From IMG/VR virus record IMGVR_UViG_3300030330_004701, positions 80,966 to 144,965 of that record: 64,000 nucleotides of DNA. One strand, given 5' to 3'. Shown here one piece after another: positions 4,964 to 60,965 of the stretch (position 1 is its first letter; each line of letters starts with the position of its first letter). Source of the stretch: a virus (Duplodnaviria > Caudoviricetes). The notes beneath the pieces were generated by a model. The model was not told the DNA's origin. It did no database searches and was given only the letters and a program-made list of their open reading frames with translations. The position numbers and the translations under genes are program-made.

Positions 4964-5187
4964 CTAACAACACCTTTCAGTTCAACAAACTTATCAACTG
5001 CATCATCAATACTATAAAATAATTTACTGTACAACTTCTTCTTATTGTCCGAGTGTACTTGGTAAACTCCATTAGCTTTTCCACGATATTGAGGCAGAAA
5101 GTGTCTCAAGTCGCAAAGACTAACATTTCTATACTCAATAGCGCAACCAGAAAAAACAACAGATTTGTAATCTTCTTTAGTGCTCAT
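4960..5187 (-). CDS. Hypothetical protein (75 aa) between the dnaE halves
   Basis: ORF overlapping both neighbours; no recognised motif. Confidence 0.55.
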   Translation of the reverse strand: MSTKEDYKSVVFSGCAIEYRNVSLCDLRHFLPQYRGKANGVYQVHSDNKKKLYSKLFYSIDDAVDKFVELKGVVR

Positions 5188-6757
5188 CTTTAATCTCCAT
5201 AATTTTACTTAGTAGGTCAATGCCTAGAATATCAAATTTAACGTGACCTTGATCCTCAAGGTCTCCCATTTCAAAACCAGCAACAAGATTCTTGTTTCTG
5301 TCTTGAACCATCGGGCAAACCTCTCTCAGTTTATTAGCAGAAATAATAACTCCTGCTGCGTGCTTGCCCTGTGATTTAATTGTACCTTCAATGTCAATAG
5401 CTTGCTCAAAGATTTCCGCTAAAGGCCCGATTAAATCTCCTTCTTGATTTACCTTACACCACTTGACTAAGTCGCTAGGTTGGTAGAGTAGTGTCCATCT
5501 AATGAGAGACTTTTCTCCACTTTCTTCAATCAGGTCAGACACATCTGCTTCATTAGGAATATTCTTTGTTATATCATTCATCTCAGCAAAGGACACAGCG
5601 TTTGTGATGCGCATGATTTCTTTCAGCGCAGCTCGCCCTTGCAGTTTATTAAATGTCAACATCTGGGAGACATTATCTTCGCCGTATTTTGACTTAATAT
5701 ATGCGATAACGTCATCTCGCTTTTCCGCTGGAACATCAACATCAATATCAGGCAAAGATACGTGATCTTCAGTATTACGTCCTGCATTGTAGAATCTTTC
5801 AAAGATCAAGTCATACTCAATAGGATCAATCTCTGTGATACCGATTAAATATGAGATCAAACATCCGGCAGCAGACCCTCGTCCGGGTCCCGGCAACCAG
5901 CCTTGTTCTCTAACATAGTTTACAATATCTTGAACAATCAAGAAATAACCAGACAGATCTGCTTCAAAAATAACATCCATCTCGTTCTTGATTCTATCGA
6001 GATATTCCTGCTTTACACCCTCATCGTCAACCTTGCCCGTCTCGGCAAGCAAGGTTCGCCAGCCATCTCTACATAACTGTTTCAGGTATTCATCTTCATC
6101 GTACCCTTCTGGGCAATCGAATTTAGGTAGCATTGGTTTACCAAGAACATTATATTCTTCGCATTGCGCTGCAATGTCAGCAACTTTATCTATCAAATCA
6201 CTACCATAGGCTGATTGGGCTTCATTTGGCGACAACATATAATACTTGTCAGAGTCAAAGAATCCTTTGAGTTTTTTGAACCCGTCCTGTTTTAGCCTCT
6301 CTTTTGACTTAGCCATTGTAGTCTTCATTCCAGAACACAGGAGTATCCTATGTAGCTCCGCATCTTTTGTTTCAGCATAGTAACTAGGCTGTTGCTTTAG
6401 CTTATCAATGCAAATCAAATTTTCACTGTGAGATTTTAATAGCTTGTAAACAACATCATCGCTATACGAGTTTTTCTTAGAAACTAAGTCAATCAGGTCA
6501 AACCATCCAGCTTTGTTTTTAGCCAAGAGAGTAGTTGGCTTATGACTTTCAAATTCAAATGTACAGCCAATGATAGGCTTAATGTCATTCTTCTTGCAAG
6601 TTTTGTAAAAGGCTACAGCACCAGAGATAGTATTTATATCAGTGATAGCGCAAGACTTGTAACCAAACTCTTTGCATTTAGCCACGAGCTGTTCTGGTTT
6701 AGAATAGCCTCTCTGCAAACTAAAGTGCGTCTTATTGTTCAGTGGAATCCAATTCAT
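5177..6757 (-). CDS. dnaE: DNA polymerase III alpha subunit, N-terminal half (degenerate PHP, palm, thumb)
   Basis: YFLIVQD, GPGRGSAAG, FERFYN, PDIDVD (two catalytic Asp), GKHAAGV, KFDILG (third Asp). Confidence 0.92.
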   Translation of the reverse strand: MNWIPLNNKTHFSLQRGYSKPEQLVAKCKEFGYKSCAITDINTISGAVAFYKTCKKNDIKPIIGCTFEFESHKPTTLLAKNKAGWFDLIDLVSKKNSYSDDVVYKLLKSHSENLICIDKLKQQPSYYAETKDAELHRILLCSGMKTTMAKSKERLKQDGFKKLKGFFDSDKYYMLSPNEAQSAYGSDLIDKVADIAAQCEEYNVLGKPMLPKFDCPEGYDEDEYLKQLCRDGWRTLLAETGKVDDEGVKQEYLDRIKNEMDVIFEADLSGYFLIVQDIVNYVREQGWLPGPGRGSAAGCLISYLIGITEIDPIEYDLIFERFYNAGRNTEDHVSLPDIDVDVPAEKRDDVIAYIKSKYGEDNVSQMLTFNKLQGRAALKEIMRITNAVSFAEMNDITKNIPNEADVSDLIEESGEKSLIRWTLLYQPSDLVKWCKVNQEGDLIGPLAEIFEQAIDIEGTIKSQGKHAAGVIISANKLREVCPMVQDRNKNLVAGFEMGDLEDQGHVKFDILGIDLLSKIMEIKDEH

Positions 6758-7247
6758 TACAGTCCTCAAATTTATTCAATTCTGAAATAGCAACATTGTG
6801 ACAATCTGCTCGAACTATGAAGCCATTAGATGGATCTTTCTGGCCTTTTGTAAGTTTGCGAGCTTTCTTAAAATAATCATCGTGAGTCAACCAACCTAAG
6901 ACCCACGCTCTTCCCCATCTTCTATTTTTATTTTCAATTCTAACAAAAACATATCTATCGCATTTTTGTTTTGTATTAAAGTTGGCGACTGAGCAATCAT
7001 AGAAAGGTTTAGGTGGAGAAGTGCACCTTTTTGTTTTTACGTCATACTTAGTTCCGTCCTTTGCAACTAAGTCGTAATCATAAGTGTTATTAATTGTACC
7101 ACCTATAACAACATTTGCAACCTCTTCTCCTAAAAACCCAGCAATATTTCCATCGCCCTTCATGATGGAGTTTTTGATAACTCCCATCTCTCTGGACTTT
7201 GCCCATGCTCGTTTCTTCATATCTTCTGTAATTTTTACTTCAATCAT
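6732..7247 (-). CDS. Hypothetical protein, possible PD-(D/E)xK nuclease
   Basis: GE...YDYDL...YDVKTK pattern resembles a restriction-endonuclease fold. Confidence 0.4.
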   Translation of the reverse strand: MIEVKITEDMKKRAWAKSREMGVIKNSIMKGDGNIAGFLGEEVANVVIGGTINNTYDYDLVAKDGTKYDVKTKRCTSPPKPFYDCSVANFNTKQKCDRYVFVRIENKNRRWGRAWVLGWLTHDDYFKKARKLTKGQKDPSNGFIVRADCHNVAISELNKFEDCNELDSTEQ

Positions 7248-8260
7248 TATCCGGGAGCCTCATAATATCCAACATCGAAACCTTCTCTTGTGCAATTTTG
7301 TATTGTATCTAGCATACCAAATTGGTCTAGGTGATTACTGACATGACGACACATACTTTCATCAGTTCCGGGCCAATCTTTCTTACAGAAGTCACAGAGT
7401 TTTTGACACTTCCAGTGAGATTGATTTCTTGACAACATTCTTGGTCTAGTTGTCTTTTTGATTTCTTGAAATCTGTCTTTTAGCATACCAAGAAACTTTT
7501 GTCTATCAGACTCTTCAAAGCAAATACTGAACGGACCTCCATCCCTAATAAAGTATATCGACATAATTGCGTCATCATATTCAGGGAAAAGCTTAGAAAT
7601 AGCATAATGATAAAGCATTAACTGTGGGTCTTTGCAGAGCTTCTCGTATGTTTTTTCTTCTCCTGTAGCCCAGTTCAATCTACGCCCAGTCTTCCAGTCA
7701 ATTACTTCGATAACACCATCTGACACTTCTGTCACTAAGTCAATAGTGCCTTTAATCGCAAGCCTACCTTCGACCTTGCTTCCATCAGGCATATCGTATT
7801 CATACTTCGCCCAGTCTTCTTCAATAGGAATATCAAACTGTGGTTCTGCTGCAACGATATTTCTCTTGCGTGGATCAAAGTTGCCATCGTCATAACTTAG
7901 TGCTTCCCAAGTAAGCTTGTCGCAAAACTTGTAGTCGGCATTGGTATAGTGATGAGTGCAGGGCACAGTATAATGGTCGTAGCTGCGCTTAAGGATTTCG
8001 TTTACAAATTTCTTTGTTCCGAGTCTACGTTTAGTAAACTCGACCTCTCCGATAGCGTCATCCTCAAGCAACAGCTCGTCACCGTCTTGTAATAACTTCT
8101 TACAGCCAGCTAGAACTTCCATCACTTTATGGACTACAGTGCCAAGCTGGGCCTTCTTGCCAGATACAGTACTATGCCCTAATACGTAGGTCATGAAGTA
8201 TTGCATTTGACAATATTCAAAATTGTTATAGCTAGAACTTCTTATATATGTAACTAACAT
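7247..8260 (-). CDS. PD-(D/E)xK exonuclease, Cas4/RecB/AddB-like, with Fe-S cysteines
   Basis: GTVVH, GTIDLV, IDWKTG, QLMLY; Cys near N-terminus plus C-terminal CQKLCDFC. Confidence 0.8.
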   Translation of the reverse strand: MLVTYIRSSSYNNFEYCQMQYFMTYVLGHSTVSGKKAQLGTVVHKVMEVLAGCKKLLQDGDELLLEDDAIGEVEFTKRRLGTKKFVNEILKRSYDHYTVPCTHHYTNADYKFCDKLTWEALSYDDGNFDPRKRNIVAAEPQFDIPIEEDWAKYEYDMPDGSKVEGRLAIKGTIDLVTEVSDGVIEVIDWKTGRRLNWATGEEKTYEKLCKDPQLMLYHYAISKLFPEYDDAIMSIYFIRDGGPFSICFEESDRQKFLGMLKDRFQEIKKTTRPRMLSRNQSHWKCQKLCDFCKKDWPGTDESMCRHVSNHLDQFGMLDTIQNCTREGFDVGYYEAPG

Positions 8261-8261
8261 A

Positions 8262-9092
8262 TTACTCCTTGATTTTCATGATTCCGCCAACAAGTTGACG
8301 TTCATCATTTTCGGACTTTGGTTCTGTCGATTCGATTACGCTACCGAGCCATCCCCATCCTTCTAGTAAAGAGATAATTTCTACGTTTGTCTCATTTAGA
8401 CTTAAATTTTTGTTATCTATGGTCGCATCATAGTTGTCTATCAAATCACTTTCTGCCTCGCTGCTATGACCATCGTTGTCAACGCCTCTTGTTAGATGAA
8501 TGACCTTGCCTCCAGCATTTTGTATAGCATCCACTTCATTTTGAAATCTGCAATCAGAAATAACTGCAATCAAAGGTTCTTCGGTGCGAATAGTTTTGAT
8601 TGTATGATCCGTCCAGATGTCGGGATGTATTTTTCTGCAAATATCTGTTCCAAAGTGTTGCATGAACTCTCTAGCAGACATCTTACCAGTTTTATCTCCT
8701 TCATATCCGGGCATGTCTTCCCAGTTAATGAATGTCTCAGAGTTCTTCTGTTCATCAGTACCATAACACTGTGATCGGTTAAGACCAAATAGACCAGTAC
8801 AAATTTCCTTCAATGCTCCAGCAAATGAATAATGCTTAATATAAGGCCACATACTTTCTGCCGCCCATAGTCCAAAATCCAGATCTGTTCTTGTGACATC
8901 TAGAACCGCAGCTGATGTCTCATTTTCGCCTTCAGCATTTGTGAATGTGGCATTGACCAAAAGTCTTCCCTTCTCATCAATTTCAAAACGGTCAATCAAA
9001 TTGTGACACCTCATTTGATAGCCGTGTAAAAAAGAACACGCAGAATTTTTACCGGATTGTTTTCTGCCAGCGAAAGCCAGAATTCTAGTCAT
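8262..9092 (-). CDS. Deoxynucleoside monophosphate kinase
   Basis: P-loop AGRKQSGK, SFAGALK, REFMQHFGTD, ISDCRFQNE, HSSE motifs of phage dNMP kinases. Confidence 0.85.
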   Translation of the reverse strand: MTRILAFAGRKQSGKNSACSFLHGYQMRCHNLIDRFEIDEKGRLLVNATFTNAEGENETSAAVLDVTRTDLDFGLWAAESMWPYIKHYSFAGALKEICTGLFGLNRSQCYGTDEQKNSETFINWEDMPGYEGDKTGKMSAREFMQHFGTDICRKIHPDIWTDHTIKTIRTEEPLIAVISDCRFQNEVDAIQNAGGKVIHLTRGVDNDGHSSEAESDLIDNYDATIDNKNLSLNETNVEIISLLEGWGWLGSVIESTEPKSENDERQLVGGIMKIKE

Positions 9093-10148
9093 TTATAATA
9101 CTCCCTGTAACTTATTAATTATTTGATCTTGTATTTGTTCGACCGTCATATCCCCAACATCTTTTTGGTCAATTTCTGGTCTGTAATAATTGAATCTTCT
9201 ACCGCAGCGTTTTAATATTTGATTAGCCGCCTTCTGTCCCGCCTCATCATAGTCTGTAAGTATGACAACATTCCTAGCGCCACTTCTTTCTATTAGTATC
9301 AATTGGTCTTCGCTAAGACTTGCGCCAAAAATTCCAACGGTATTTGTGACGCCGGCTTCGTGCATACGCCAAACATCGCCTTGTCCTTCTACTAGAACAA
9401 TAGTGCCTTTTTTCATTATATCATCCTTAGCGACATTATACCCGTACAAATAAGAACTTTTTTTGAAACCTTTGCTGTGTAGCCATTTTGGTTGCATATT
9501 CTGGTAGATTGCTCTACCGATACAGGCGACGTAATTATTGTTCTCATCGTAGATAGGTACGACTACTCGGCCTGACATTGGTTTACCTTTGCCGATACAC
9601 ATACCTATGTCGAATTTCTCAAGAGTTTCCGCTTTATATCCACGGTTGATGTAATATTGTGAAGGTATATCAAGTTTACTTACGACAGAACCTCTATCAA
9701 TAACTTGCTCGTGCCTTACTGGTTCTCTCTGAAAAGTCTCTAATATTTTAACAACACTGTAATTTTCTACAGGTTGCTCGAATTCAATACTCTCTGGGTC
9801 TAAGCCTAAAAACTTACTGCAGAAATAAAATGTCTCTAATACTCCAACCTCTTTAGACTTTCTATTTGTAAGAAGACCGCGAACAAAACCAAAGGTATTC
9901 TTGCCATAGTCTTCGTGGCAGTTCGCTGTCCAGCAGTTCCAGTTGCCTTTTGAACTGACCCCATCGGTAAATATGGAACAACCTTCTGGATTGTCACCTC
10001 CGTGAATAGGACAAGCAAAGGCTAGTCTATTTGGGTATTCAATATAATCAATTTCAAAATATTTCAGCAAATCTTCAACTCTAGTTGCGAGCTGATTAGA
10101 CACCGCTAATATCTGCTGATTCGTTAGTCGTTTGTTCAAAACCATCAT
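9093..10148 (-). CDS. dnaG: DNA primase
   Basis: Zn-binding CPIHGGD...CWTANC; TOPRIM VEGQGD and DYDEAG. Confidence 0.88.
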   Translation of the reverse strand: MMVLNKRLTNQQILAVSNQLATRVEDLLKYFEIDYIEYPNRLAFACPIHGGDNPEGCSIFTDGVSSKGNWNCWTANCHEDYGKNTFGFVRGLLTNRKSKEVGVLETFYFCSKFLGLDPESIEFEQPVENYSVVKILETFQREPVRHEQVIDRGSVVSKLDIPSQYYINRGYKAETLEKFDIGMCIGKGKPMSGRVVVPIYDENNNYVACIGRAIYQNMQPKWLHSKGFKKSSYLYGYNVAKDDIMKKGTIVLVEGQGDVWRMHEAGVTNTVGIFGASLSEDQLILIERSGARNVVILTDYDEAGQKAANQILKRCGRRFNYYRPEIDQKDVGDMTVEQIQDQIINKLQGVL

Positions 10149-11565
10149 CCTTAATCTTGCTTGATTTATGGGCCTCGTTTCTTGTTTTGCCCTCAACAAG
10201 CTTACCAAATTTACCAAACATGTTCATATTGATATAGTCACCATCATCAAGTCCGGCTCCGTGACGAGCAACAATTGGAACAAGTTTTCTGTTACCATGT
10301 TCCTCTCCGTCATCAGCCATCTCTTCGTCTGACTTCATCTTAAAAATAGTAAAGCTGGTACACAACCAAATCAATCTGTCAGAACCACTGACAACATCTG
10401 TTGATTCCTTTGTAATACCATCTCTGTTTAGCTGCACAAAACTCAAACAAGGGACATCATGTTTTACGCAGAAGTTATGTAGCTGCGTAATTTGAAACCC
10501 TAATACTTGGAACTCCTGCATGGAGTTAGAAATACTGTCCGAGTTCATCAATTTCAAATAGTCATAAATTATAATACAATCATTTGTTCTGCCATTTTCA
10601 TCAAAGCCAACTTCTTGGTGAATCCATTTGCGCATAATTGCAAGAATGTTTTCAAATGGCTGACCAGCAATACTAACGTAGTGATATGGGATATTCTGTA
10701 GTTCTTCGGCTGCCTTTTCTACTTTCTCAATATCTAAATCATTGTTAGCGAATTTGCCACTAGCTAACTTGTTAATCTCCACGCCGCTGAGGTTTGCCAG
10801 CATACGATTGAGGTGGTCTTCTTTTGACATTTCAGTATCTAACATCAACACTGGGATATTTAAGTTTCTAGATACGTGCATGGCTACAGCGTCACCAAAC
10901 ATGGACTTACCGACTTTAGGACGGGCAGCAACCAGATCTACACATTTCCTGCGTATACCTCCACCAATAGCCTCATCAAAGCGGGGAAATCCGGTGCTTA
11001 TGCCCAGCATTTCATTTTGGTTTTCTTTCAAAAACTCAACGTATTCGCCTACATCTTCACCAATAATTTTTGGTTTATTATCTGAGCCTTGATATATCTT
11101 TGAAGTGGCATCAAGAATAGGAGTTTCGATCAAAGAGATGATCTCTGCAATATCTTCGTCACCATTGATCTTGTCTACTTCTAAAGAACATTTAGCCAAA
11201 GTCTTCTTTACGTCACGAGCTATCTTGAGTTTAGCTAACTTAGCCCCATTGACAGGAATGTTATCTTCCAGAATGGGAGTATCAAACAAGTATCTTAAAT
11301 AACCAGCTTCCTCTTTAATGATGTCGTAATGATTAAGCTGATTTGCGGCGGAAAGCAATGACGAAAGCTCCGCCTTTTGAGTAGACTCAAGAGACTTTTT
11401 TATACAGTCAAAGATAACCTGATTTGTTTGATCTACAAAATACTCGGTACTGATATACTCAACCTCAAGCATTGCATCAATTCCGTATTGACACAAACCA
11501 GCGAGAACAGCAGATTCAGCTGCGGCATCTTCTAGCTTATTTTCATTTTGTTTAATTCGTACCAT
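10096..11565 (-). CDS. dnaB: Replicative DNA helicase
   Basis: AESAVLAGL, GISTGF, Walker A ARPKVGKS, TEMS, IYDYLKL, QLNR, ARHG; likely start MVRIKQ. Confidence 0.9.
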   Translation of the reverse strand: MVRIKQNENKLEDAAAESAVLAGLCQYGIDAMLEVEYISTEYFVDQTNQVIFDCIKKSLESTQKAELSSLLSAANQLNHYDIIKEEAGYLRYLFDTPILEDNIPVNGAKLAKLKIARDVKKTLAKCSLEVDKINGDEDIAEIISLIETPILDATSKIYQGSDNKPKIIGEDVGEYVEFLKENQNEMLGISTGFPRFDEAIGGGIRRKCVDLVAARPKVGKSMFGDAVAMHVSRNLNIPVLMLDTEMSKEDHLNRMLANLSGVEINKLASGKFANNDLDIEKVEKAAEELQNIPYHYVSIAGQPFENILAIMRKWIHQEVGFDENGRTNDCIIIYDYLKLMNSDSISNSMQEFQVLGFQITQLHNFCVKHDVPCLSFVQLNRDGITKESTDVVSGSDRLIWLCTSFTIFKMKSDEEMADDGEEHGNRKLVPIVARHGAGLDDGDYINMNMFGKFGKLVEGKTRNEAHKSSKIKDDGFEQTTNESADISGV

Positions 11566-11699
11566 AATAATCCCACATTGGCCATTGCATAAGAAAACCA
11601 CATAAGCGCATGTGGATAATCTTTTTGTTTTACACAAGAAACACACACAACTAAGTACATTATCGAAGCTGTTGTGATCGCAAGCATACCTAAATTCAT
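11532..11699 (-). CDS. Small membrane protein (55 aa), below ORF-track cutoff
   Basis: MNLGMLAITTASIMYLVVCVSCVKQKDYPHALMWFSYAMANVGLLWYELNKMKIS; start abuts upstream stop. Confidence 0.55.
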   Translation of the reverse strand: MNLGMLAITTASIMYLVVCVSCVKQKDYPHALMWFSYAMANVGLLWYELNKMKIS

Positions 11700-11798
11700 T
11701 TACATTCCTCTAAAAATATAGAACCCCATACAAATAGTAGCACTCAAAAATACGCCGAGTAGGAAGTCTTTCCATTCTAAAGTAATTGCTTTCTTCAT
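11700..11798 (-). CDS. Small membrane peptide (32 aa)
   Basis: MKKAITLEWKDFLLGVFLSATICMGFYIFRGM; TAATG overlap with upstream gene. Confidence 0.5.
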   Translation of the reverse strand: MKKAITLEWKDFLLGVFLSATICMGFYIFRGM

Positions 11799-12151
11799 TA
11801 TCCAAAAAATCCTTTGATCTTAGTTAAGATATCCCCACCTCCAAAACCACCTTTGAAGATTACTAGGTATGCTACTATAGCACCAACTATGATAAAAAAC
11901 AACCACTTTCTCTTAGAAGCGACCGCATAAAACTTTTCTTTTATTGCTGCAATCTTCTCTAATCGGTAGTTTCGTCTTTCTTCAACCTTCTCTTTGCGTT
12001 CTTCTTTGCGTTCTTCCTTAGCCTCTCTTCTAGCTTCACCTCTAGTCCTAGCCGATTCTTCCGAAACTTCGGACTCTTCGCTATCGCCTACTTCGGTAGC
12101 CTTGTTAGGGAAAATTTTATCTTTAATACTTTGCAATATATTTTTGAACAT
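11798..12151 (-). CDS. Hypothetical membrane protein
   Basis: Charged coiled region then hydrophobic segment WLFFIIVGAIVAYLVIF. Confidence 0.6.
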   Translation of the reverse strand: MFKNILQSIKDKIFPNKATEVGDSEESEVSEESARTRGEARREAKEERKEERKEKVEERRNYRLEKIAAIKEKFYAVASKRKWLFFIIVGAIVAYLVIFKGGFGGGDILTKIKGFFG

Positions 12152-12774
12152 TATAGCTCCTTAAGAAAATCTAAGTTTAGTTCCAAGTCTGTTTTGGCGA
12201 ACCATCGGTGCCAAATATCACCCTCTCCTCCATCCCCATTAGAGGTGTAGAATTTTTTATATCCTAGCGATTCCATATAATCATAGCTCTTATAATTTGG
12301 AACAAATCCATGATGCTCAGCGCAAATTACCTTAATATCCATTTTAGAAAAATCTATGCCAGATATTGCTTCATGCTCAAAGCCCTCTAAGTCAAGTGAT
12401 AGAAAATCAACTGCTGTTATGGACTGATCGTCAAAAATTTGCTGCAGAGTTTTTGCTGGAGCTATGAATGATTCCGTCGAATCAGAAGCGCCTGAACAAG
12501 TCGCAGTCATGCCTCCGCCATGAAGTGTTATCGTTGGTTTATCATACTGGTCAGATACAATAGCGGCATGCACAAATTTAGTTGCCGGTCTATTAAGCAA
12601 AAAACCAGCTTCATATCTAATTTGAGCATCTATTGCTATGCCAGACCATCCAGCCCTTTCTAAATCAAAGGTGTTATTCTGTTCATTATAGTCATTGCAA
12701 CCAGCGTCCACAAAAAAACCGCTACTACCAAATATTGAGAGGGCTATCTTATCTACATTATCTTGAGCCGCCAT
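12151..12774 (-). CDS. FkbM-family methyltransferase
   Basis: GFFVDAGCND, GWSGIAID, VDFLSLDLEGFE. Confidence 0.8.
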   Translation of the reverse strand: MAAQDNVDKIALSIFGSSGFFVDAGCNDYNEQNNTFDLERAGWSGIAIDAQIRYEAGFLLNRPATKFVHAAIVSDQYDKPTITLHGGGMTATCSGASDSTESFIAPAKTLQQIFDDQSITAVDFLSLDLEGFEHEAISGIDFSKMDIKVICAEHHGFVPNYKSYDYMESLGYKKFYTSNGDGGEGDIWHRWFAKTDLELNLDFLKEL

Positions 12775-13196
12775 TATTCTCCACTGCTCCCGAAGCCACC
12801 CTCTCCACGATCAGTATCATCGAGATCATCAACTTCTAAAAATTCAACATCTTCAACTTTTTGTATGATTAATTGTGCTATTCTATCACCCGGATGAACA
12901 TGCACTATTTGGTCAGAAGTATTCAGTAGGCAAACTTTTATCTCGCCCCTGTAGCCAGAATCAATTACACCAGCAAGAACATCAATACCCTTCTTAACTG
13001 ACAAGCCAGACCTTGGCCAAATTAGACCACAATAGCCATCGGGAATAGCAATTGATATGTCGGTAGAAATTAATCTTCTTTTATGTGGATAAACTGGCTG
13101 TGATGTGTGGGAAGCGTATAAATCCCAGCCAGCATCAGAACTGTGCGCCTTAGTAGGAACGCTTGCAGATTCGTTTAATAATTTAACTTTTATCAT
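12774..13196 (-). CDS. dut: dUTP diphosphatase
   Basis: AGWDL, RSGLS, GVIDSGYRGEI, DRIAQL, RGEGGFGSSG. Confidence 0.97.
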   Translation of the reverse strand: MIKVKLLNESASVPTKAHSSDAGWDLYASHTSQPVYPHKRRLISTDISIAIPDGYCGLIWPRSGLSVKKGIDVLAGVIDSGYRGEIKVCLLNTSDQIVHVHPGDRIAQLIIQKVEDVEFLEVDDLDDTDRGEGGFGSSGE

Positions 13197-13639
13197 TATC
13201 TTCTCCTCCCAGCTAGACAGCTATCACATACAAACCACTCTCTTCTATGTGACTCGTGTACATTGAAAATCTCATTACACTCTTGGCACTTCTGCGGAAC
13301 TAACTTGCTAGGACTTCTTCTCTCTGTGGGCACGAAATCTGGAGTTTCTATGTCAGTATGTTCTGTGCCATCGTCAACAAACTTATTTTCTCTAAGTTTA
13401 ACACTATTGACAGGTGTTCTACTACTCGACTTAGGATTTCTTTCCATAGCGAACTCATCGGCAGTGACTCTCTGAGGTGTGTTTTCTTCCTTCTTTACTA
13501 CCTGTTTCGGTTCAGGTTGAGCAGGTGTTTCGGTTTCAATATCCACCTCTAATAGAGAGTTTGCCATATTTATTAAATCCTCATCATTAAGAGCAATACC
13601 TTTTCTTAGTAGCTCTTTTGCTGTATCAATTATCGACAT
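13196..13639 (-). CDS. Hypothetical protein with C-terminal zinc finger
   Basis: CQEC...CDSC. Confidence 0.55.
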   Translation of the reverse strand: MSIIDTAKELLRKGIALNDEDLINMANSLLEVDIETETPAQPEPKQVVKKEENTPQRVTADEFAMERNPKSSSRTPVNSVKLRENKFVDDGTEHTDIETPDFVPTERRSPSKLVPQKCQECNEIFNVHESHRREWFVCDSCLAGRRR

Positions 13640-14136
13640 TAGTAACCTCTTCTTTTGCCTAAGTCTTGTAATAATCCAGCCATCCTCTTTGTATTATCGA
13701 CTTTACCAGAAAGTCTGTTGAGTCTAGCTTGCGACATAATTTTTAATCTATTTAATTCTGTGGCCATTGGGTTTTCTTTTACTGCGGAATAATATTTTTC
13801 CTGCCATTTGGAGTATTGGCCTCCGTAGTTTTGCAGCTTATCTCCGACCATGAACCAGATGCTGTCATCGCAAAACTCAACGACCGTCTTCTCTTTATTA
13901 TAAACACCTTGAAGATATTCTGCATGAGCAAAAAGAACAAAAGAATAAGACAGCGCCTTCTCTTGACTCAGAGATCTAATCTCATCAGAGCTTAGCGCCA
14001 TGATTGGCTCCACTTCTTCATTTTCTTTTGCAAGGTCTGCGTTTCTATCTTCAATCCAGTCATCCACTTTTGAGAGGAATTCTGTAACTTTTTGTTCGTT
14101 AGTCAAATTTTGCCCTCCATTGTTCTTCAGACTCAT
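13639..14136 (-). CDS. Hypothetical helical protein (possible recombination mediator by position)
   Basis: Coupled to nuclease and recA genes; no firm motif. Confidence 0.45.
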   Translation of the reverse strand: MSLKNNGGQNLTNEQKVTEFLSKVDDWIEDRNADLAKENEEVEPIMALSSDEIRSLSQEKALSYSFVLFAHAEYLQGVYNKEKTVVEFCDDSIWFMVGDKLQNYGGQYSKWQEKYYSAVKENPMATELNRLKIMSQARLNRLSGKVDNTKRMAGLLQDLGKRRGY

Positions 14137-14512
14137 TATAATTTAGTTCAATTAAAGTCATATGGTTTAGTTCGCACCAAGCTCTTTTATCTTTATCTCT
14201 TGCTTGAGCTTTGAAAAACGCCATCTTGTCTTTGTGAAAAAATGAATTGAACTTAAAGTGCTGTTCGCCATGCACTTCTACAATCAGCTCTCTGTTTGGC
14301 ACATATAGATCAGCATAGAGCAGAGTCTTCCTAGAGCCTGTTCTAGTTCCCGGTAGTGTCACTTCCTCTAGTATTCTATCATAAGGGTACACTTCTTTCA
14401 AGATGGATCTTGCTTTTTTATGTAAAGAAGATCTGTTTTTTTCATCTACCGAGGCTTGACTTCTAGAGGGGTTCCACTTCCAAGTTTTACCATCGAGACC
14501 TTCTACATACAT
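14099..14512 (-). CDS. Vsr/DUF559-like endonuclease
   Basis: EEV...ADLYVPNRELIVEVHGEQHF...RDKDK. Confidence 0.7.
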   Translation of the reverse strand: MYVEGLDGKTWKWNPSRSQASVDEKNRSSLHKKARSILKEVYPYDRILEEVTLPGTRTGSRKTLLYADLYVPNRELIVEVHGEQHFKFNSFFHKDKMAFFKAQARDKDKRAWCELNHMTLIELNYNESEEQWRAKFD

Positions 14513-15576
14513 TATAGCATACCCTTAATTTCTTTTTCTAAGATGTCAAAGACTTCTTCATTCGCCAGTAAGAAGTTATACAACCTTTCTTGACCTTGGA
14601 ACTTTACTGCTTTTAGGACTGCCTCAGTATCTTCTATATTTGTTTCTGGCTTTATCTTCTTGACTACATCAGTAAAACCAACCATGAACTCACATGTGAA
14701 CCAAGCGCCAGCCTTACCTATTAGACCTAAGTCCAGTCCAAGCATGATAAGCTCTTGAATTTTGTCTACACCGTGTCCATATTTAATCCAGCTTTGACAC
14801 TCTGTTCCGGGAGATCCCATAGATGAACAAACTACTTTCCAATTAACAGCCTGTCCAACCTGACGGTCGCTTTGCACCCAAGGGCTGATAGATTTTACTT
14901 CCATTCTAGTGTCTGCCTGATATTGAATTTTTCTACCGCAGTCTGGCATTCTAGACGCACCATAGCCAGAAGTATTAGCGATGAAGTGTGTGATAATAAT
15001 CAGTGTCGCCCTTTGATTGGGAACAATCTGTCCCATCTTTTTACAAAATACAGACAGGATCTTCGGGAGTCCTGCTCGTCCGGGAGTCATGTCTCCATCT
15101 AATTCTTTTGCTGGCATTAGGGATGAAGTGGAGTCGATAATACAGACACAGCCTTCATTCTCTTTTGCGCTGACAAGCTTGACTGCGATATCTAGAAACG
15201 CCTCTGCACTAAGTGGCTCATCCTCAGAATGAATGATTTGCATTTTTTCCTTATCCAAGCCGTCCACGCCAAGCAGATTCATTTCTTTTAGTCTGCCTTC
15301 AGCGTCAAGATAGATGATTGGACGACCTTCTTTTTGGCAGTTGGCAGCGATTTGTAAAGCTGTAGTTGTTTTTCCGCACTTTGGATCTCCAGTTAGGATG
15401 ACCCAAGAGCCTTCTTTAATCCCGCCGCCTAATGCTAGGTCAATAGCAGGACTGACAGTAACAACCTTATAATCTTTCCTTCTCTCTAAAACTTGATTCC
15501 CAGTGGAGATCACATTGCCATATTTCTTAATAATTTCTTTTACAAATGCTGGATCAGTCTTTTTTGTCTTTGCCAT
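14512..15576 (-). CDS. recA: RecA/UvsX-like recombinase
   Basis: IDLALGGGI, Walker A GDPKCGKTT, YLDAEG, IIDS, KAGAWF. Confidence 0.9.
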   Translation of the reverse strand: MAKTKKTDPAFVKEIIKKYGNVISTGNQVLERRKDYKVVTVSPAIDLALGGGIKEGSWVILTGDPKCGKTTTALQIAANCQKEGRPIIYLDAEGRLKEMNLLGVDGLDKEKMQIIHSEDEPLSAEAFLDIAVKLVSAKENEGCVCIIDSTSSLMPAKELDGDMTPGRAGLPKILSVFCKKMGQIVPNQRATLIIITHFIANTSGYGASRMPDCGRKIQYQADTRMEVKSISPWVQSDRQVGQAVNWKVVCSSMGSPGTECQSWIKYGHGVDKIQELIMLGLDLGLIGKAGAWFTCEFMVGFTDVVKKIKPETNIEDTEAVLKAVKFQGQERLYNFLLANEEVFDILEKEIKGML

Positions 15577-29633: not shown

Positions 29634-30650
29634 TTAAAAGTCGTCAACTAAATTTCCTACAGAATACTCAGTGACTCTAGTCTCGAAAAAGTTCTTGCAT
29701 TTTTCCAGATCAATGATCTCGCTCATCCAAGGAAATGGGTTCTGTGCATTTCCATAAGGTGATGGTAAATTTAAATTGGTTAATCTTCTATCAGCAATAA
29801 ACTGAACATAATCAATAAACATATCTGCGTTTAGACCTAAGATACCATTTGGTAGAACATCTCTAGCATATGCTAACTCTAGCTCCATAGCTGTATCAAT
29901 ATGCTCAATGGTTTCTTTTTCCATTGCTTTTGTCCAGATCTTAGGATTGTCTTCTCTCAATCTGTTAATAAGAGTTGTACCAAAATTAATGTGGATACTC
30001 TCATCACGAAGAGTGTATTGAATCTGCTCGCCAATTCCCGGCAACTTGTTTTGTCTGTTGAATGAGAGGAGCATAGCAAAACCAGAGAAGAAGAAAATCC
30101 CTTCACAGATAACATAATAAGTAATAATATTACGAAGGAATTCTCTCTTCCCCTCTAGCGTATTTATATTAAAGTCGGGGCGATTGATGTCAGTTGTGAT
30201 GTTCATCAAGAACTCATCTTTAGCCTTGATACTCGGAATTGAATTATATGCCTGATAAACTTCATCAATATCTAAGTTCAAAGAATCACAAACATAAACC
30301 ACAGTAAGGTTGTGGAGGCTTTCCTCATATGCTTGACGCAGGATATATTGGCGACACTCTGGATCAGTAACAAACTTGAACACGCTGAGCAGTAAGTTGT
30401 TTGCAACTAAAGACTCAGACCCAGCGAAGAATCCTAGACATCTTTTGACTACTAATCTTTCATCTTCAGATAAGGATTTTGATTTCCATTGCTCAATATC
30501 TTTTGCCATAGAGACTTCTGTTGGCATCCAGTTATTTGCTGCGCCGTCTATGAATAAGTCCCATGCCCATTTGTTTGTATGCGGCAAGATTTGATTCACA
30601 GTAGCTACTTTATCTGATATAATTTCTTTGCTTTTCTTCATTATTGACAA
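29634..30650 (-). CDS. nrdB: Ribonucleotide reductase beta subunit, class Ic-like (no radical Tyr)
   Basis: FFAGSESL, EESLHNLTV, EGIFF, RDESIH, NFFETRVTEY. Confidence 0.9.
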   Translation of the reverse strand: MSIMKKSKEIISDKVATVNQILPHTNKWAWDLFIDGAANNWMPTEVSMAKDIEQWKSKSLSEDERLVVKRCLGFFAGSESLVANNLLLSVFKFVTDPECRQYILRQAYEESLHNLTVVYVCDSLNLDIDEVYQAYNSIPSIKAKDEFLMNITTDINRPDFNINTLEGKREFLRNIITYYVICEGIFFFSGFAMLLSFNRQNKLPGIGEQIQYTLRDESIHINFGTTLINRLREDNPKIWTKAMEKETIEHIDTAMELELAYARDVLPNGILGLNADMFIDYVQFIADRRLTNLNLPSPYGNAQNPFPWMSEIIDLEKCKNFFETRVTEYSVGNLVDDF

Positions 30651-33091
30651 CTCTCACATCCGGGATCTAAAATAGAACATGCCTTAATTTCTTCTGCTTC
30701 TGGCTCTTCGGTTGACTTAAAACTAACAGTTGATTTCTCAACACGAGTGGCAGCTTTGCCTCTCAAGTAGTATGTAGTTTTTAATCCGTTTTCCCAAGCA
30801 CAAAAATATAAGTCATTCAAAAACTTAAGGCTATCATGTTTGTTGTAAAGATTCAGTGACTGTCCCATATCAATCCACTTCTGTCTTTCAGCCGCAGCCT
30901 TAATTAAAATCTCTGGTTCAATATCAAAAGCCGTGATAAACTCTCGCTGGATGTCTTCATCCAAATCAACCGCCATAACATCTCCGTCTGCAGTTTTGAG
31001 AGCATCTACTAGCTCTTGACACCAAATACCCTTCTTCTTGGCCATTGCAACAAAGTGCTCATTGACCATTGTGAATTCGCCACTAAGCGTTGAATACACA
31101 TAAAGAATTGAGTAATCTGGCTCAATAGACTGTGAGCAACCTTGAATATATGAAATGGTTGCGGTAGGGGCGATTGCCATAACATTACTATTGCGCATGC
31201 CATGTTTTCTCACTAATTCCCTGACCTCATCCCATTCTTCTACAAAGTTCTCGAAGTCCTCTTTCTTATACACATTATCTGACCTGTGAGTCTCTCTCTG
31301 GTTCATTAAATCACAATAAGTATCTATAGGAAAATTACCTTTATCCCATTCAGAACCCTCAAAAGAGGGGTATGCGCCTTTTTCTTTAGCCAATAATGCC
31401 GATGTTTTGATCGCGTGCAAAGAAATAAATTCTTGTATTTTTCCGCACAATATAACCGCATCTTGCGAATTATATGGTATTCCTAGCTTGTGCAGCACAT
31501 CATGAGTGCCCATAATGCCAAGTCCTACAGGTCTATGCTTTAGGTTAGACTTTTTAGCCTCTTTTGTAGGATAGAAGTTTAGATTAACCACATTGTCTAA
31601 GCCTCTAACCGCCACCTCTACAGTTTTTTGTAGCTTTTTCCAGTCGATTGTACGAACTTTCAAGTGTGACGAAAGATTAATACTGGCTAGATTGCAAACT
31701 GCTGTTTCACCTACCTCAATAACTTCTCCCTCTTCGTATACTGTTGGCTTAGTGTGTAATAATATTTCTGTACATAAATTAGAAGAATGAACTACACCTT
31801 CGTGTTTATTAGAATATCTTATATTAGATGGATCTTTGAAGGTAATCCAAGGATGTCCAGTTTCGTAAAGAGCCGTCAAAACCTTCTTCCACAAATCTTT
31901 TGCATTAACAACCCTATGATTTCTAATCTCTCCATTGTCTGCTGCTTTCTTGTACTTTCTATAAATTTTAGTAAAATCCTTGCCATAACTATCATGTAGT
32001 TCAGGACATTCCGCAGGGTCAAATAGATACCAATCTTGGTTCTTTGAGACAGCCAGCATAAAATCATCTGGAATCCAAATGGCTGTATTCATGTCGTGAC
32101 AACGGCGGCGATCATCTCCTGTGTTCTTTCTAAGATCTAGGAAGTCTTCAATATCTAAGTGCCAAGGCTCAATGTAAGAACATCCAGCACCTTTTCTCTT
32201 TCCCCCCTGATTCACAGCTACCAGCAGGTCATTAAATATCTTTAGCCAAGGAACAAGTCCTGTAGACTTTCCATTAGTGCCTTTTATATAGCCGCCTGTA
32301 GCTCTTACACTAGACCAATCCACTCCAAGTCCTCCAGCATATTTCGACAATCTAGACTGTCCATGTAGCGTACCAAAGATACCATCAATTGAATCTCCTA
32401 CTGTACTCAAGTAGCATGAGGAAAGCTGAGACCTACGAGTTCCGCTATTAAACAAGGTCGGTGTTGACGGAGAATACCTAAACTCTGACATCATATTATA
32501 TATTTCGAGAGCCTTATCTTCTTTATTGTTCCCCTCAGCAAGACATAGCCCCATAGCTACCCGCATATAAAATGCTTGAGGGGTTTCCATTCTCTGCTCA
32601 TTTAGGTGGATAAAATAGCGATCATAGAGTGTCTGGATACCCAAGTACTTGAACAGCTTGTCCCTTGATGGAACCATATTCTCGGCTAGGTAGTCAAGAT
32701 CATAAGAAAGGAGACTATCACTGAGCCTCTCTTCTTTTACTAGCTTTTTGATGTTTTTCACAAAAGCTTTTTTATACTGCTCTTCAAAAGTTTCACTGCC
32801 TACATCTTCGCCAAAAACTTCTTTGTAAAGATTGTTGAGTAGCATCCTCGCTGCAACATAAGCATAGTTCGGTTCTTTCTCTATCTTTGAGCGGGCTGAT
32901 AATATCAGAGCCTTATTAATTTCTGACGTTGGTATTTTATTGTATAACTGCAGACTGGCATCAAGAACTACCTCACTGACAGAAACGTCTTCTAATTCCC
33001 CACAAGCCCTTTCAACGCATTCGTTAATTTTATCTAAACAAACATCTTCTAATCTACCATTACGTTTTTTAATCTTTATATCTTGGCTCAT
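30641..33091 (-). CDS. nrdA: Ribonucleotide reductase class I alpha subunit with ATP cone
   Basis: IKKRNG ATP cone, STPTLFNSG, QLSSC, SNLCTEI, VCNLAS, APTATIS, KTTYYLR, C-terminal CESC. Confidence 0.95.
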   Translation of the reverse strand: MSQDIKIKKRNGRLEDVCLDKINECVERACGELEDVSVSEVVLDASLQLYNKIPTSEINKALILSARSKIEKEPNYAYVAARMLLNNLYKEVFGEDVGSETFEEQYKKAFVKNIKKLVKEERLSDSLLSYDLDYLAENMVPSRDKLFKYLGIQTLYDRYFIHLNEQRMETPQAFYMRVAMGLCLAEGNNKEDKALEIYNMMSEFRYSPSTPTLFNSGTRRSQLSSCYLSTVGDSIDGIFGTLHGQSRLSKYAGGLGVDWSSVRATGGYIKGTNGKSTGLVPWLKIFNDLLVAVNQGGKRKGAGCSYIEPWHLDIEDFLDLRKNTGDDRRRCHDMNTAIWIPDDFMLAVSKNQDWYLFDPAECPELHDSYGKDFTKIYRKYKKAADNGEIRNHRVVNAKDLWKKVLTALYETGHPWITFKDPSNIRYSNKHEGVVHSSNLCTEILLHTKPTVYEEGEVIEVGETAVCNLASINLSSHLKVRTIDWKKLQKTVEVAVRGLDNVVNLNFYPTKEAKKSNLKHRPVGLGIMGTHDVLHKLGIPYNSQDAVILCGKIQEFISLHAIKTSALLAKEKGAYPSFEGSEWDKGNFPIDTYCDLMNQRETHRSDNVYKKEDFENFVEEWDEVRELVRKHGMRNSNVMAIAPTATISYIQGCSQSIEPDYSILYVYSTLSGEFTMVNEHFVAMAKKKGIWCQELVDALKTADGDVMAVDLDEDIQREFITAFDIEPEILIKAAAERQKWIDMGQSLNLYNKHDSLKFLNDLYFCAWENGLKTTYYLRGKAATRVEKSTVSFKSTEEPEAEEIKACSILDPGCESCQ

Positions 33092-33128
33092 GAGGTCTCA
33101 CTGAAATCAAAGGTTAGTATAAGTCTAT

Positions 33129-33265
33129 AAAAAAACGACACTTATAACATACAGGGGTAGGAACTTGTCTACTCAAAGTGTATCCCTGTGCCTTTCGGCT
33201 TGTCGGGGTAAGTGTCGTTTAGCCTGTTTTCCAAAACTGGGCTTTTTTATTCCCCAACGACTGTT
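33129..33265 (-). ncRNA. Structured 5' leader of nrdA (attenuator/riboswitch candidate)
   Basis: 12-bp stem AAACGACACTTA/TAAGTGTCGTTT followed by U-run, enclosing GCC-GAAA-GGC and ACAGGG/CCCTGT stems; 5' GTCGTT can pair alternatively with AACGAC. Confidence 0.55.
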
Positions 33266-33267
33266 AA

Positions 33268-33296
33268 ATTATAATGTTCGTTGGGCGGATTTGCAA
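33268..33296 (-). promoter_or_regulatory. Sigma70-type promoter of nrdAB with overlapping inverted repeat
   Basis: TTGCAA-17 nt-TATAAT; CCCAACGA...TCGTTGGG flanks the -10 box. Confidence 0.75.
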
Positions 33297-34660: not shown

Positions 34661-35299
34661 TTATATAGTACACAAATTGCTAAGTATTTTATATGATTTT
34701 ATTCTAATTCCATAAATATTTGATTTATAAAAAATGTTATAATGATCTTGACTCAATATGGGAGAACAGCTAACGACAGGCATTTCTATTTGGTCTTCTA
34801 TTGTCTTGCAGCAGATTATATTATCTACAATGTCATCAACCATTGTTCCTGTTCCTATGACTATTTCTGAAGAGGCGTTGGATTTTAAACAATAACATAA
34901 GTCCATGACAAATGCCCAGTCAGAAACCCTGTATTCTATAACAGGACGAAGAGAGATGTCGTACTGGGCACATGCAGATGCGCACGCTTTAAAGTCTTTT
35001 CTTATACTAGCTAAATTAGAAGCCTCTAAGTCATTCCTGTTTATAACTAAATCAATACTCTTCGCGCCTCTTCTCTTTGCTAAAATTATATCGTGAATCC
35101 TAACATTTGTATCAGATAAACCAAAAGGGTAATCTACGATGGCAGAGAAGTTGAGGTGTTCCTTAATTAAAGACTCGTCAATTCTAGAGAGAAGTCCTGA
35201 AGGCGTACATATGGTATCTACTTTGCTATTAGCAGAATCAAATATGCACTCCAACACAGAGCTGTAATCAGCTTCGTTACACAAGACTTCTAGTTTCAT
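34661..35299 (-). CDS. DeoC-like (deoxyribose-phosphate aldolase fold) protein, apparently catalytically degenerate
   Basis: IVDYPFG, GAKSIDLVIN, LRPVIE align to DeoC; the FIKTSTG Schiff-base motif reads IVIGTG. Confidence 0.65.
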   Translation of the reverse strand: MKLEVLCNEADYSSVLECIFDSANSKVDTICTPSGLLSRIDESLIKEHLNFSAIVDYPFGLSDTNVRIHDIILAKRRGAKSIDLVINRNDLEASNLASIRKDFKACASACAQYDISLRPVIEYRVSDWAFVMDLCYCLKSNASSEIVIGTGTMVDDIVDNIICCKTIEDQIEMPVVSCSPILSQDHYNIFYKSNIYGIRIKSYKILSNLCTI

Positions 35300-35769
35300 T
35301 AATCGTTGTCCTCAAATATGGCTAGCGCGCTATTGACGGCTCTGCGGGCAGTTTCTCTGCTGTAGCCATTCTTTGCACCTATTTCTACCATTGTCATTCT
35401 CTCTAGGTATCTTTGTTTCAAAATCTTCTTCTGGTCTTCATTCAGGTCTGACAGTAATACCTCTATGTTTTCTTTGGGTGTGTGACAGATGTCAAAAGGT
35501 ATACCATTTTTTTCTCTGCGTCTGATCCTTAACTGGTTCATCATTGCGTAATTAAGTTGCTGATAAAGGAATGTCGTGAACTTTACTCCTCTATCTTCGT
35601 CAAAAGATTTTAGGCATTTCCAAAGTATTTCTAACCTTAAAGACGATATATCATCTGGGTCAACACTTCTAGAATATTTTGCGCAAACAGAGTCCATAAT
35701 TTTTTTGTAATCAATATTTTCCAAAGCGTCATCTAAGTCTCTGGATTTCAATTTAAGATCTTTCTTCAT
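35299..35769 (-). CDS. RNA polymerase sigma factor (region 2 + region 4)
   Basis: LWKCLKSFDEDRGVKFTTFL; QRYLERMTMVEIGAKNGYSRETAR HTH. Confidence 0.8.
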   Translation of the reverse strand: MKKDLKLKSRDLDDALENIDYKKIMDSVCAKYSRSVDPDDISSLRLEILWKCLKSFDEDRGVKFTTFLYQQLNYAMMNQLRIRRREKNGIPFDICHTPKENIEVLLSDLNEDQKKILKQRYLERMTMVEIGAKNGYSRETARRAVNSALAIFEDND

Positions 35770-44480: not shown

Positions 44481-44484
44481 AAAG

Positions 44485-44824
44485 TGGAGGTGGCGGGATT
44501 TGAACCCGCGTGCCACATAATATTATTATTAACTTCTACATGTTTAGTATAATTATTATCGCCTACTATACTAGGCTATCCGAGTTATCGGAGTCAAACA
44601 AATTATTGTTATCATATATATTTAGTTCAAGTATATAAACTCTACCAGAGTTATCTGCGTCATCACTATTTGGTTTGCGGGGCTGTGATACCCGTGCCGC
44701 TAGGCGGCGAGTGCGAAATTCTCTTCTACACTTAAAAAAATTAGAACGATTTTTTAAGTAGCCATTCGTTCAACTACTACATGCGATCAATAACTTTATT
44801 ACTGGTCGATTCCAATTCACCCCC
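44485..44824 (-). ncRNA. ssrA: tmRNA (transfer-messenger RNA), tag (A)VEENFALAA
   Basis: 5' GGGGGTGAATTGGAATCGAC; 3' GCGGGTTCAAATCCCGCCACCTCCA; acceptor stem with G3:U70; GTA GAA GAG AAT TTC GCA CTC GCC GCC TAA after TTAAGT; CCA not encoded. Confidence 0.93.
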
Positions 44825-56096: not shown

Positions 56097-56168
56097 TGAC
56101 CTGTACGGGAATCGAACCCGTGTTGCCAGCGTGAAAAGCTGGAGTCCTAACCCCTAGACGAACAGGCC
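56097..56168 (-). tRNA. tRNA-Glu (anticodon UUC)
   Basis: GGCCTGT/ACAGGTC acceptor; CCAGC-TTTTCAC-GCTGG anticodon arm; GGTTCGATTCCC T-arm; CCA not encoded. Confidence 0.93.
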
Positions 56169-60803: not shown

Positions 60804-60826
60804 GTGAAATCTCCTATTAGTGTTAG

Positions 60827-60931
60827 AAAAAAACTGGCTTATCCGACTTACGCAGGCTCCACAAGGGGATGACATATCATGCTGCTCGGTTACGGCTTTG
60901 GATCACACCGTCACTTGTGACCTCGCCAGTT
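60827..60931 (-). ncRNA. Unassigned structured RNA directly after a promoter
   Basis: AACTGGC/GCCAGTT closing stem plus U-run; internal complementary pairs ACGGT/GCCGT, CCGA/TCGG, GCAG/CTGC, CACAAG/CTTGTG; GC-richer than flanks. Confidence 0.55.
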
Positions 60932-60937
60932 GATTTG

Positions 60938-60965
60938 ATTATACAATACTTATCGTCAGTTGCAA
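60938..60965 (-). promoter_or_regulatory. Promoter with GACGAT spacer motif
   Basis: TTGCAA-ctGACGATaagtattg-TATAAT. Confidence 0.75.

Follow-up and report, generated by a model that had tools for sequence, protein, structure and literature searches.

To judge from comparative sequence analysis, the element that precedes the ribonucleotide reductase (RNR) genes nrdA and nrdB in the phage DNA considered here forms, together with its relatives, a single RNA family, which is real and conserved. This family is uncatalogued and was missed by Rfam 15. Our preferred reading, to which we give a probability of about 0.55, is that the stretch is the 5′ leader of the nrdAB messenger and would act in cis on RNR expression via a built-in intrinsic terminator. 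Because it is predicted to be transcribed from its own promoter directly before RNR genes, and this for two RNR classes, the leader most likely determines the amount of this DNA-precursor enzyme that is produced. The DNA analysed, referred to here as the window, forms the final 64 kb of a phage record of 145 kb in IMG/VR. As the surrounding genes run on the minus strand, the element is read as the reverse complement, and the predicted RNA is ~130 nt long (33262-33126, minus strand, nrdA-sense). Its features, together with the genes that it may serve, are as follows.

33268..33296, minus: sigma-70-type promoter (promoter scan, 10/12 matches)
33252..33258, minus: 5′ strand of helix a (GUUGGGG), located no more than a few bases from the transcript 5′ end (RNAalifold consensus)
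33244..33251, minus: A-rich linker L1 (AAUAAAAA), between helix a and P0 (alignments)
33221..33243, minus: hairpin P0 (AGCC..GGCU, inner GUUUU/AAAAC; folds)
33209..33220, minus: 5′ arm of P1 (AAACGACACUUA; repeat finder)
33202..33208, minus: 3′ strand of helix a (CCCCGAC), abutting the P1 5′ arm (RNAalifold, relatives, covariation)
33190..33199, minus: P2, a GCC-GAAA-GGC tetraloop hairpin (invariant in the window's group; GGAA in locus L012)
33151..33189, minus: P3 arm (ACAGGG/CCCUGU) with a nested GUAG/CUAC element, P3b (folds)
33133..33144, minus: 3′ arm of P1 (UAAGUGUCGUUU; repeat finder; invariant in 11/11 of the window's group)
33129..33135, minus: U7 tract ending P1, predicted intrinsic-terminator tail (read from the sequence)
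33092..33128, minus: short spacer from the U-run to nrdA, with conserved CAGUGAGA (alignment of the window's group)
30641-33091, minus: nrdA (Pfam: RNR barrel, all-alpha and ATP-cone domains)
29634-30650, minus: nrdB (Pfam: RNR small chain)
29634..33091, minus: nrdA plus nrdB, the genes under the leader's putative control

Promoter and architecture of the leader

A first-pass annotation of this DNA had proposed a TTGCAA-17-TATAAT promoter ahead of a folded leader, and a promoter scan located this promoter at 33296..33268 on the minus strand, with the −35 box TTGCAA at 33296-33291, a spacer of 17 nt and the −10 box TATAAT at 33273-33268. The arrangement CTTGCAAAT..AACGA..TATAAT is kept across the alignment of the window's group, and more distant members have an extended −10 of the form GTGTATAAT instead. 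At the other end of the element, the conserved CAGUGAGA constitutes the Shine-Dalgarno region (33103-33096) of nrdA, whose AUG lies at 33091-33089; the promoter scan found no promoter-like site between the U-run and this AUG in the window. A second promoter within the invariant 3′ arm (TTATAAGTG) was considered and rejected, as the word is not recurrent in the genome, and a replication origin at the element was rejected since there is no GC-skew turning point there.

The whole genome (G000) contains eleven TTGMMA-N16-18-TATAAT promoters, every one on the minus strand (examples are found at 61450-61423, 60965-60938, 52060 and 41267 of the window, and at 4082-14809 of the genome). A GMCGATA word 2-3 nt past the −35 box is conserved in most of the eleven, which may constitute an early-promoter class with a spacer element. 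The promoter of the nrdA leader is without GMCGATA at that position and has AACGA closer to the −10 instead. Another of these promoters heads a stretch of similar layout to the nrdA element (minus strand, 60825-60965), consisting of TTGCAA-16-TATAAT, a leader of ~100 nt, the long-range stem AACTGGC/GCCAGTT that closes it, T7, a Shine-Dalgarno sequence and an ATG at 60802; the fold of this leader is no better than that of shuffles (z 0.59), and it has no Rfam match. About 2 kb upstream of the nrdA leader, the minus strand (35299-35769) encodes a sigma-70-family protein of 156 aa that contains regions 2 and 4.

The folded elements that had been described at first pass, namely the AGCC..GGCT hairpin, the 12-bp stem with its U-run, the GAAA hairpin and the ACAGGG arm, are all present in the leader. 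P1 is a 12-nt perfect stem (AAACGACACTTA/TAAGTGTCGTTT) with arms 64 nt apart and is followed by T7, and no second copy of its core is present in the 145-kb genome. The minimum-energy fold contains the AGCC..GGCT and GCC-GAAA-GGC hairpins as well as the ACAGGG/CCCTGT arm with its GTAG/CTAC element. The 93-nt domain closed by P1 has a folding energy of −28.1 kcal/mol, compared with −15.4 ± 2.8 in shuffles (z −4.5, 0/200), and the fold of the whole 171-nt leader is unexceptional relative to shuffles (z −0.87). With a stable stem directly before a U-tract, P1 is predicted to be an intrinsic terminator; it is absent from a simple terminator scan (loop 3-8) because the stem encloses 64 nt.

A further helix, the fifth of the family, was overlooked by the first-pass annotation. 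In the RNAalifold consensus of the window's group, the first transcribed bases pair with the segment 3′ of the P1 5′ arm. The resulting helix a encloses P0 and the P1 5′ arm, and the CCCCGAC partner lies ~50 nt downstream of GUUGGGG. The strands thus follow the order of an H-type pseudoknot (a 5′, P1 5′, a 3′, P1 3′), with both helices covarying on 33 relatives. Across members, helix a begins 1-13 nt past the −10. Mutually exclusive folds had been suggested for the leader, through pairing of GTCGTT at the transcript start with AACGAC; this pairing was recovered by the repeat finder in the window, but the alignment shows that it is not conserved among the relatives. Pairing is conserved between the transcript 5′ end and the segment immediately 3′ of the P1 5′ arm, resulting in the pseudoknot, and no conserved alternative (antiterminator) pairing was found.

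Relatives, subtypes and covariation

Homologous leaders are present on IMG/VR contigs encoding relatives of NrdA, and four clades of these can be aligned in sequence with the window copy. Two more subtypes were recognised by architecture, termed E-type (GCUAGAGCGACAC) and F-type (UUCGCUAAAGCGRCAC). About 100 distinct members, drawn from viral and marine metagenome contigs, comprise 55 E-type, 40 F-type, 7 window-type and 4 clade D sequences. The leader RNA is absent from loci with NrdA of 59% identity and from some loci at 75%, blastn of the leader against 50,697 phage records gave no match, and the nearest NrdA of a cultured phage is <50% identical to that of the window. A T-rich stretch and then (G)ATGTAAT, ~30-40 nt ahead of the start codon, are common to the loci L069-L081 (NrdA ~59% identical) and perhaps represent a different promoter type.

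Members share a common order of elements. The promoter is followed by strand a, an A-rich linker, P0 with its AGC/GCU base and the P1 5′ arm; strand a′ follows the P1 core after 0-5 nt in all members, and then come a variable P2/P3 domain, the P1 3′ arm and usually a U-run. The cores of the two P1 arms, CGACAC and GUGUCG, are conserved family-wide, and an AUAAAAR-like A-rich linker occupies the place of L1 in the alignments of all three subtypes. The base of P0 is likewise kept in all subtypes, with an inner stem that varies between clades and subtypes. The P3 stem changes in sequence between clades with its complementarity kept (CAGUAGC/GCUACUG in L006, CAGAG/CUCUG in L009). Subtypes vary in their interior domain: GCC..GCAC occupies the place of P2 in E-type members, and their P3 consists of CCAAG/CUUGG variants with the (G)UAG/CUA element retained.

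The predicted terminator is also widely shared. A U-run sits right behind P1 in ~80% of members, and at least five U directly follow P1 in 48/55 E-type, 27/40 F-type and 7/7 window-type distinct members; a few members are without any U-run. Clade D of the window's group retains an invariant 3′ arm and U-run despite decay of the P1 5′ arm; in this clade, P3 is followed by U5, and the two may serve as its terminator. Most F-type members have a second strong terminator and ~100 extra bases before nrdA, which hold a conserved GnGTACAAT word and possibly a promoter of their own.

The covariation analysis was based on an alignment (A4) of 33 E- and F-type members. Because covariation within the window's own 11-sequence group is not significant, the structural support comes from this wider family. 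Helix a and P1 are 94.3% paired on A4, compared with 33-51% when the partner is slid, and double-change cells number 86, whereas shuffles give 32.7 ± 6.8 (0/500). Helix a is represented by ~19 different complementary sequence pairs across members, with compensatory changes in 6/7 of its pairs on A4, and the P1 columns are 97.9% paired, GC/AU/GU exchanges included. The covariation in homologues that the first-pass annotation had proposed to look for is therefore seen in both helices. Only the nrdA-sense strand is compatible with the G-U pairs, seen 12 times at one position of helix a and 8 times at one position of P1. An sRNA on the plus strand was rejected, given that the RprA, anti-hemB and toxic-sRNA matches on that strand are far below their gathering scores, the promoter-like sites are all on the minus strand, the G-U pairs fit the minus strand only, and relatives do not retain the plus-strand U-run that follows the P0 complement.

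A covariance model built from E- and F-type members only, with the window's group left out, recovered the window copy at full length (32.2 bits, E about 1e-4) as its sole significant match in the 64 kb. Of the clades in the window's group, the model also recovered A-C and missed D. A covariance model was needed for this, since sequence-only profiles missed or barely reached the window copy: it was not found by an HMM of the E-type sequences, and an HMM of E- and F-type sequences together reached it only marginally (E 0.016).

These data also bear on a reading in which the conserved feature is a DNA operator and the RNA folds are incidental. In that case, a repressor, NrdR-like or phage-encoded, would bind a palindrome at the −10 together with the repeated AACGAC(AC) words. 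The repeat finder did detect an 8-nt inverted repeat (CCCAACGA/TCGTTGGG) bracketing the −10, as well as a resemblance between the −10 region and the reverse complement of the P1 3′ arm that is closer in clades C and D. The palindrome, described at first pass as operator-like, thus exists in the window, but the alignment shows that it is kept only in the closest relatives, and its downstream half is the 5′ strand of the conserved RNA helix a. Furthermore, selection acts on RNA pairing of one strand, as shown by the compensatory changes and the G-U pairs. NrdR boxes are reportedly 16-bp palindromes (acaCwAtATaTwGtgt) in promoter regions, usually in tandem. In agreement with the first-pass annotation, which had seen no such box, a search with this consensus at ≤3 mismatches found none within 24 kb of the element; the sole NrdR-box-like match in the window, at 58081, is as expected by chance. 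We therefore regard an operator of this kind as very improbable.

Association with ribonucleotide reductase genes and possible modes of action

Ribonucleotide reductase is the bottleneck of DNA-precursor supply, and its genes are among the commonest auxiliary genes of marine viruses. To our knowledge, almost nothing has been established about how phages tune this enzyme.

Well-formed members of the family lie before RNR genes wherever the downstream DNA is long enough to tell. A scan of viral contigs with an F-type word gave 57 loci, 20 of them also with the 3′ arm, and all 3′-arm-bearing viral loci with enough DNA lie ~250 nt upstream of nrdA, except L118. In L118, a small basic ORF comes after the RNA and precedes a gene for a 730-aa class II (B12-type) RNR (L118:9797-11989) in place of nrdAB. 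A scan of metagenomes with a two-arm pattern gave >120 stretches, and every one that has a promoter, helix a and enough downstream DNA then has nrdA (~33) or an nrdJ-like gene (~18). The RNR gene mostly starts 22-250 nt past the element; in two metagenome loci, it is located behind a nuclease-like gene and a small basic ORF. Metagenome matches without promoter and helix a, mostly on GC-rich soil contigs, have no RNR gene and were dismissed as chance, as were four matches to the exact word TTATAAGTGTCGTTTTTT outside nrdA loci in viral contigs, which share nothing else. Among 185,579 cellular genomes, the exact E/F-type pattern gave 29 matches, none well-formed; these are attributed to chance because none has a promoter, helix a, U-run or RNR gene. 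The RNA thus gives the impression of being specific to phages and linked to two classes of RNR gene, although a gene order conserved within one broad phage lineage could account for part of the link to RNR.

Some further features of these loci may be recorded here. The ~18 metagenome loci with a class II RNR-like gene behind the leader RNA include L155, L160 and L166. A DUF1501 gene is present just downstream in L118 and likewise in the window's genome. The small, very basic ORF between leader and RNR gene (53-74 aa, with a KFEVxFIxKDKNGKPTxKRK..-like motif and a Lys/Gly-rich tail) occurs in L118 (9572-9796), L033, L051, L056, L060, L179 and L187, and is absent from the window; L179 and L187 have a staphylococcal-nuclease-like ORF ahead of it.

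In the cis-acting reading that we prefer, transcription would start at the sigma-70-type promoter (33296-33268). Closure of P1 behind the polymerase would then lead to termination and release of the ~130-nt RNA, whereas the polymerase would read into nrdAB if P1 were left open. The sensor would be the folded core, consisting of helix a, the A-rich linker, P0 and the conserved P1 and P2/P3 loops, and would set the balance between termination and read-through by binding a small molecule or a protein. For the ligand, our guess is that a deoxynucleotide-related compound exerting feedback repression is the most economical option. That the leader is a true metabolite riboswitch, within the cis-regulatory reading, is possible though doubtful. 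We can only tentatively envisage a riboswitch class confined to marine phages that would sense a deoxynucleotide or deoxynucleoside and, irrespective of the enzyme class, shut off the phage's RNR operon by closing a pseudoknot helix that is also the terminator stem. The variation of the interior domain between subtypes is not what one ligand pocket would usually show. Members without a U-run, the extra terminator of most F-type members, the decayed P1 5′ arm of clade D and the lack of significant covariation in the window's own group also weigh against the preferred reading. Moreover, if helix a and P1 merely coexist, the terminator might be constitutive.

This last point leads to a leader that does not sense at all, in which the pseudoknot would shield the 5′ end of the mRNA against degradation and a leaky terminator would fix a low, constant level of read-through. 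The nrdA leader would then exemplify a wider tendency of these marine phages to have knotted leaders behind their early promoters. Consistent with this, helix a engages the very 5′ end of the transcript, beginning so close to the −10, no alternative pairing is conserved, and the second early promoter in the window (60965-60938) also has a stem-closed leader with a U-run. Against this, the second leader has no significant fold, and a mere stabiliser needs neither six helices, conserved loops and a conserved P1 sequence, nor a lasting tie to two RNR classes. A constitutive leader is accordingly judged unlikely.

The first-pass annotation had left open whether the element is an unrecognised cis-regulatory RNA or a stand-alone sRNA. 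Its description as a conserved structured RNA with its own promoter upstream of nrdAB has held, and of its two proposals the cis-regulatory role is favoured because the relatives sit before two different RNR classes. As a trans-acting sRNA gene, the element would merely occupy a fixed place beside RNR, and nrdAB would be expressed by leak-through or from other promoters. The strong promoter and the P1 plus U-run terminator, as predicted, would indeed bound a discrete ~130-nt RNA, and the 3′ arm, invariant in the window's group even where its partner has decayed, would suit a seed or a protein-binding site. Most F-type members have the look of a separate RNA gene because of the second strong terminator and the ~100 bases, with GnGTACAAT, before nrdA. 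In the window and in E-type members, however, the RNR start codon is only 22-64 nt past the U-run with no promoter-like site in between, some members without a terminator run straight into the RNR Shine-Dalgarno sequence, and the RNA stays linked to RNR though the RNR class differs. For these reasons, a trans-acting sRNA seems rather unlikely.

Finally, the RNA, or a factor bound to it, might modify the polymerase so that P1 and the terminators beyond it would be passed at the appropriate stage of infection, according to the logic of lambda nut/N or HK022 put. A promoter-proximal element followed by one or two terminators before the genes would fit such antitermination; a GNRA-type hairpin (P2) and conserved helix sequence would suit protein recognition, and some members have the small basic ORF between the RNA and the RNR gene. 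This ORF is absent from the window, however, P2 is not a conserved GNRA hairpin in E- or F-type members, and no known antiterminator gene, no nut or put similarity and no Rfam match were found. We consider antitermination improbable and retain the cis-acting attenuator as the preferred reading.

Whatever its mode of action, a conserved, covarying pseudoknotted leader tied to two RNR classes in ~100 uncultured marine phages represents a well-defined candidate regulator of 130 nt, with promoter and terminator known from the sequence. Should a metabolite prove to be its partner, it would add a novel riboswitch class to the very few that are native to phages; should the partner be a protein or the polymerase, it would represent a novel device for attenuation or antitermination. 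Either way, an RNA family that Rfam 15 misses is added.

Comparison with known RNA families

The first-pass annotation had found no match to known riboswitch families and had proposed a search of Rfam, and no family reached its gathering score at the element. Across the whole window, Rfam 15 (4227 models, among them those for cobalamin, purine/2′-dG, ZTP, c-di-GMP, PRPP/ppGpp, Mn and NiCo riboswitches) gave only a tmRNA and a tRNA, both elsewhere. These gathering-level hits lie on the minus strand at 44482-44824 (tmRNA, 101 bits) and 56097-56168 (tRNA). A search of the 701 bases surrounding the element at E up to 10 gave chance-level matches only, the best being RprA on the other strand with 23.5 bits against a gathering score of 70, and there was no Rfam match in the loci of 15 relatives. 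A full-text literature search found no description of the motif; a paper on the phage Melnitz was set aside as a prior report, as it concerns a glutamine riboswitch and not RNR.

RNA leaders of RNR operons have been described in bacteria. A cobalamin riboswitch reportedly precedes the class Ia nrdAB(S) genes of Streptomyces. The phage element resembles it in being an RNA leader that would control a class I RNR operon, but differs in its fold and in having no Rfam cobalamin match, and a B12 logic of switching off class I is unfit because the phage leader also precedes genes for B12-dependent class II RNR. In Pseudomonas aeruginosa, a long 5′ UTR of nrdAB is described as lowering transcript level and stability by a mechanism not yet identified (PMC12528414). 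As far as this description allows a comparison, the P. aeruginosa and phage RNAs are both long nrdAB leaders, the former being bacterial and not known to contain a defined conserved pseudoknot. The phage RNA is, in the manner of riboswitches, a conserved and covarying structured domain in the 5′ UTR of functionally related genes.

Among phage elements, the put RNA of HK022 consists of two simple stem-loops that act on the polymerase in processive antitermination, comparable to lambda nut. Both systems and the phage leader have a promoter-proximal folded RNA and then terminators ahead of delayed genes, but in the phage leader the terminator stem belongs to the conserved fold, and no similarity to put was found.

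The preQ1-I, SAM-II/SAM-V and fluoride riboswitches are pseudoknots in which an aptamer helix is also the expression platform. They share with the phage leader the H-type order, an A-rich linker, a short or absent link between helices, and a pseudoknot helix adjacent to or identical with the helix that terminates transcription or sequesters the Shine-Dalgarno sequence. The phage leader is far larger (~130-150 nt, six helices) with hairpins in both pseudoknot loops and has no sequence match to these riboswitches, and ligand binding is only a candidate role for it.

The closest parallels in logic are the cobalamin riboswitch of Streptomyces and the 2′-dG-I riboswitches, variants of the purine class that are said to lie upstream of RNR genes in Mesoplasma florum. 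To the latter there is no sequence or fold similarity, in that the 2′-dG-I riboswitches are three-way junctions with kissing loops, whereas the phage RNA is an H-type pseudoknot anchored at the 5′ end, with P0, P2 and P3; consistent with this, the Rfam purine and 2′-dG models gave no match to the element even at E up to 10. What the 2′-dG-I and phage RNAs have in common is a structured leader directly before RNR genes with a terminator-type read-out, and a logic of feedback by a DNA-precursor metabolite, which matches that proposed here for the phage leader.
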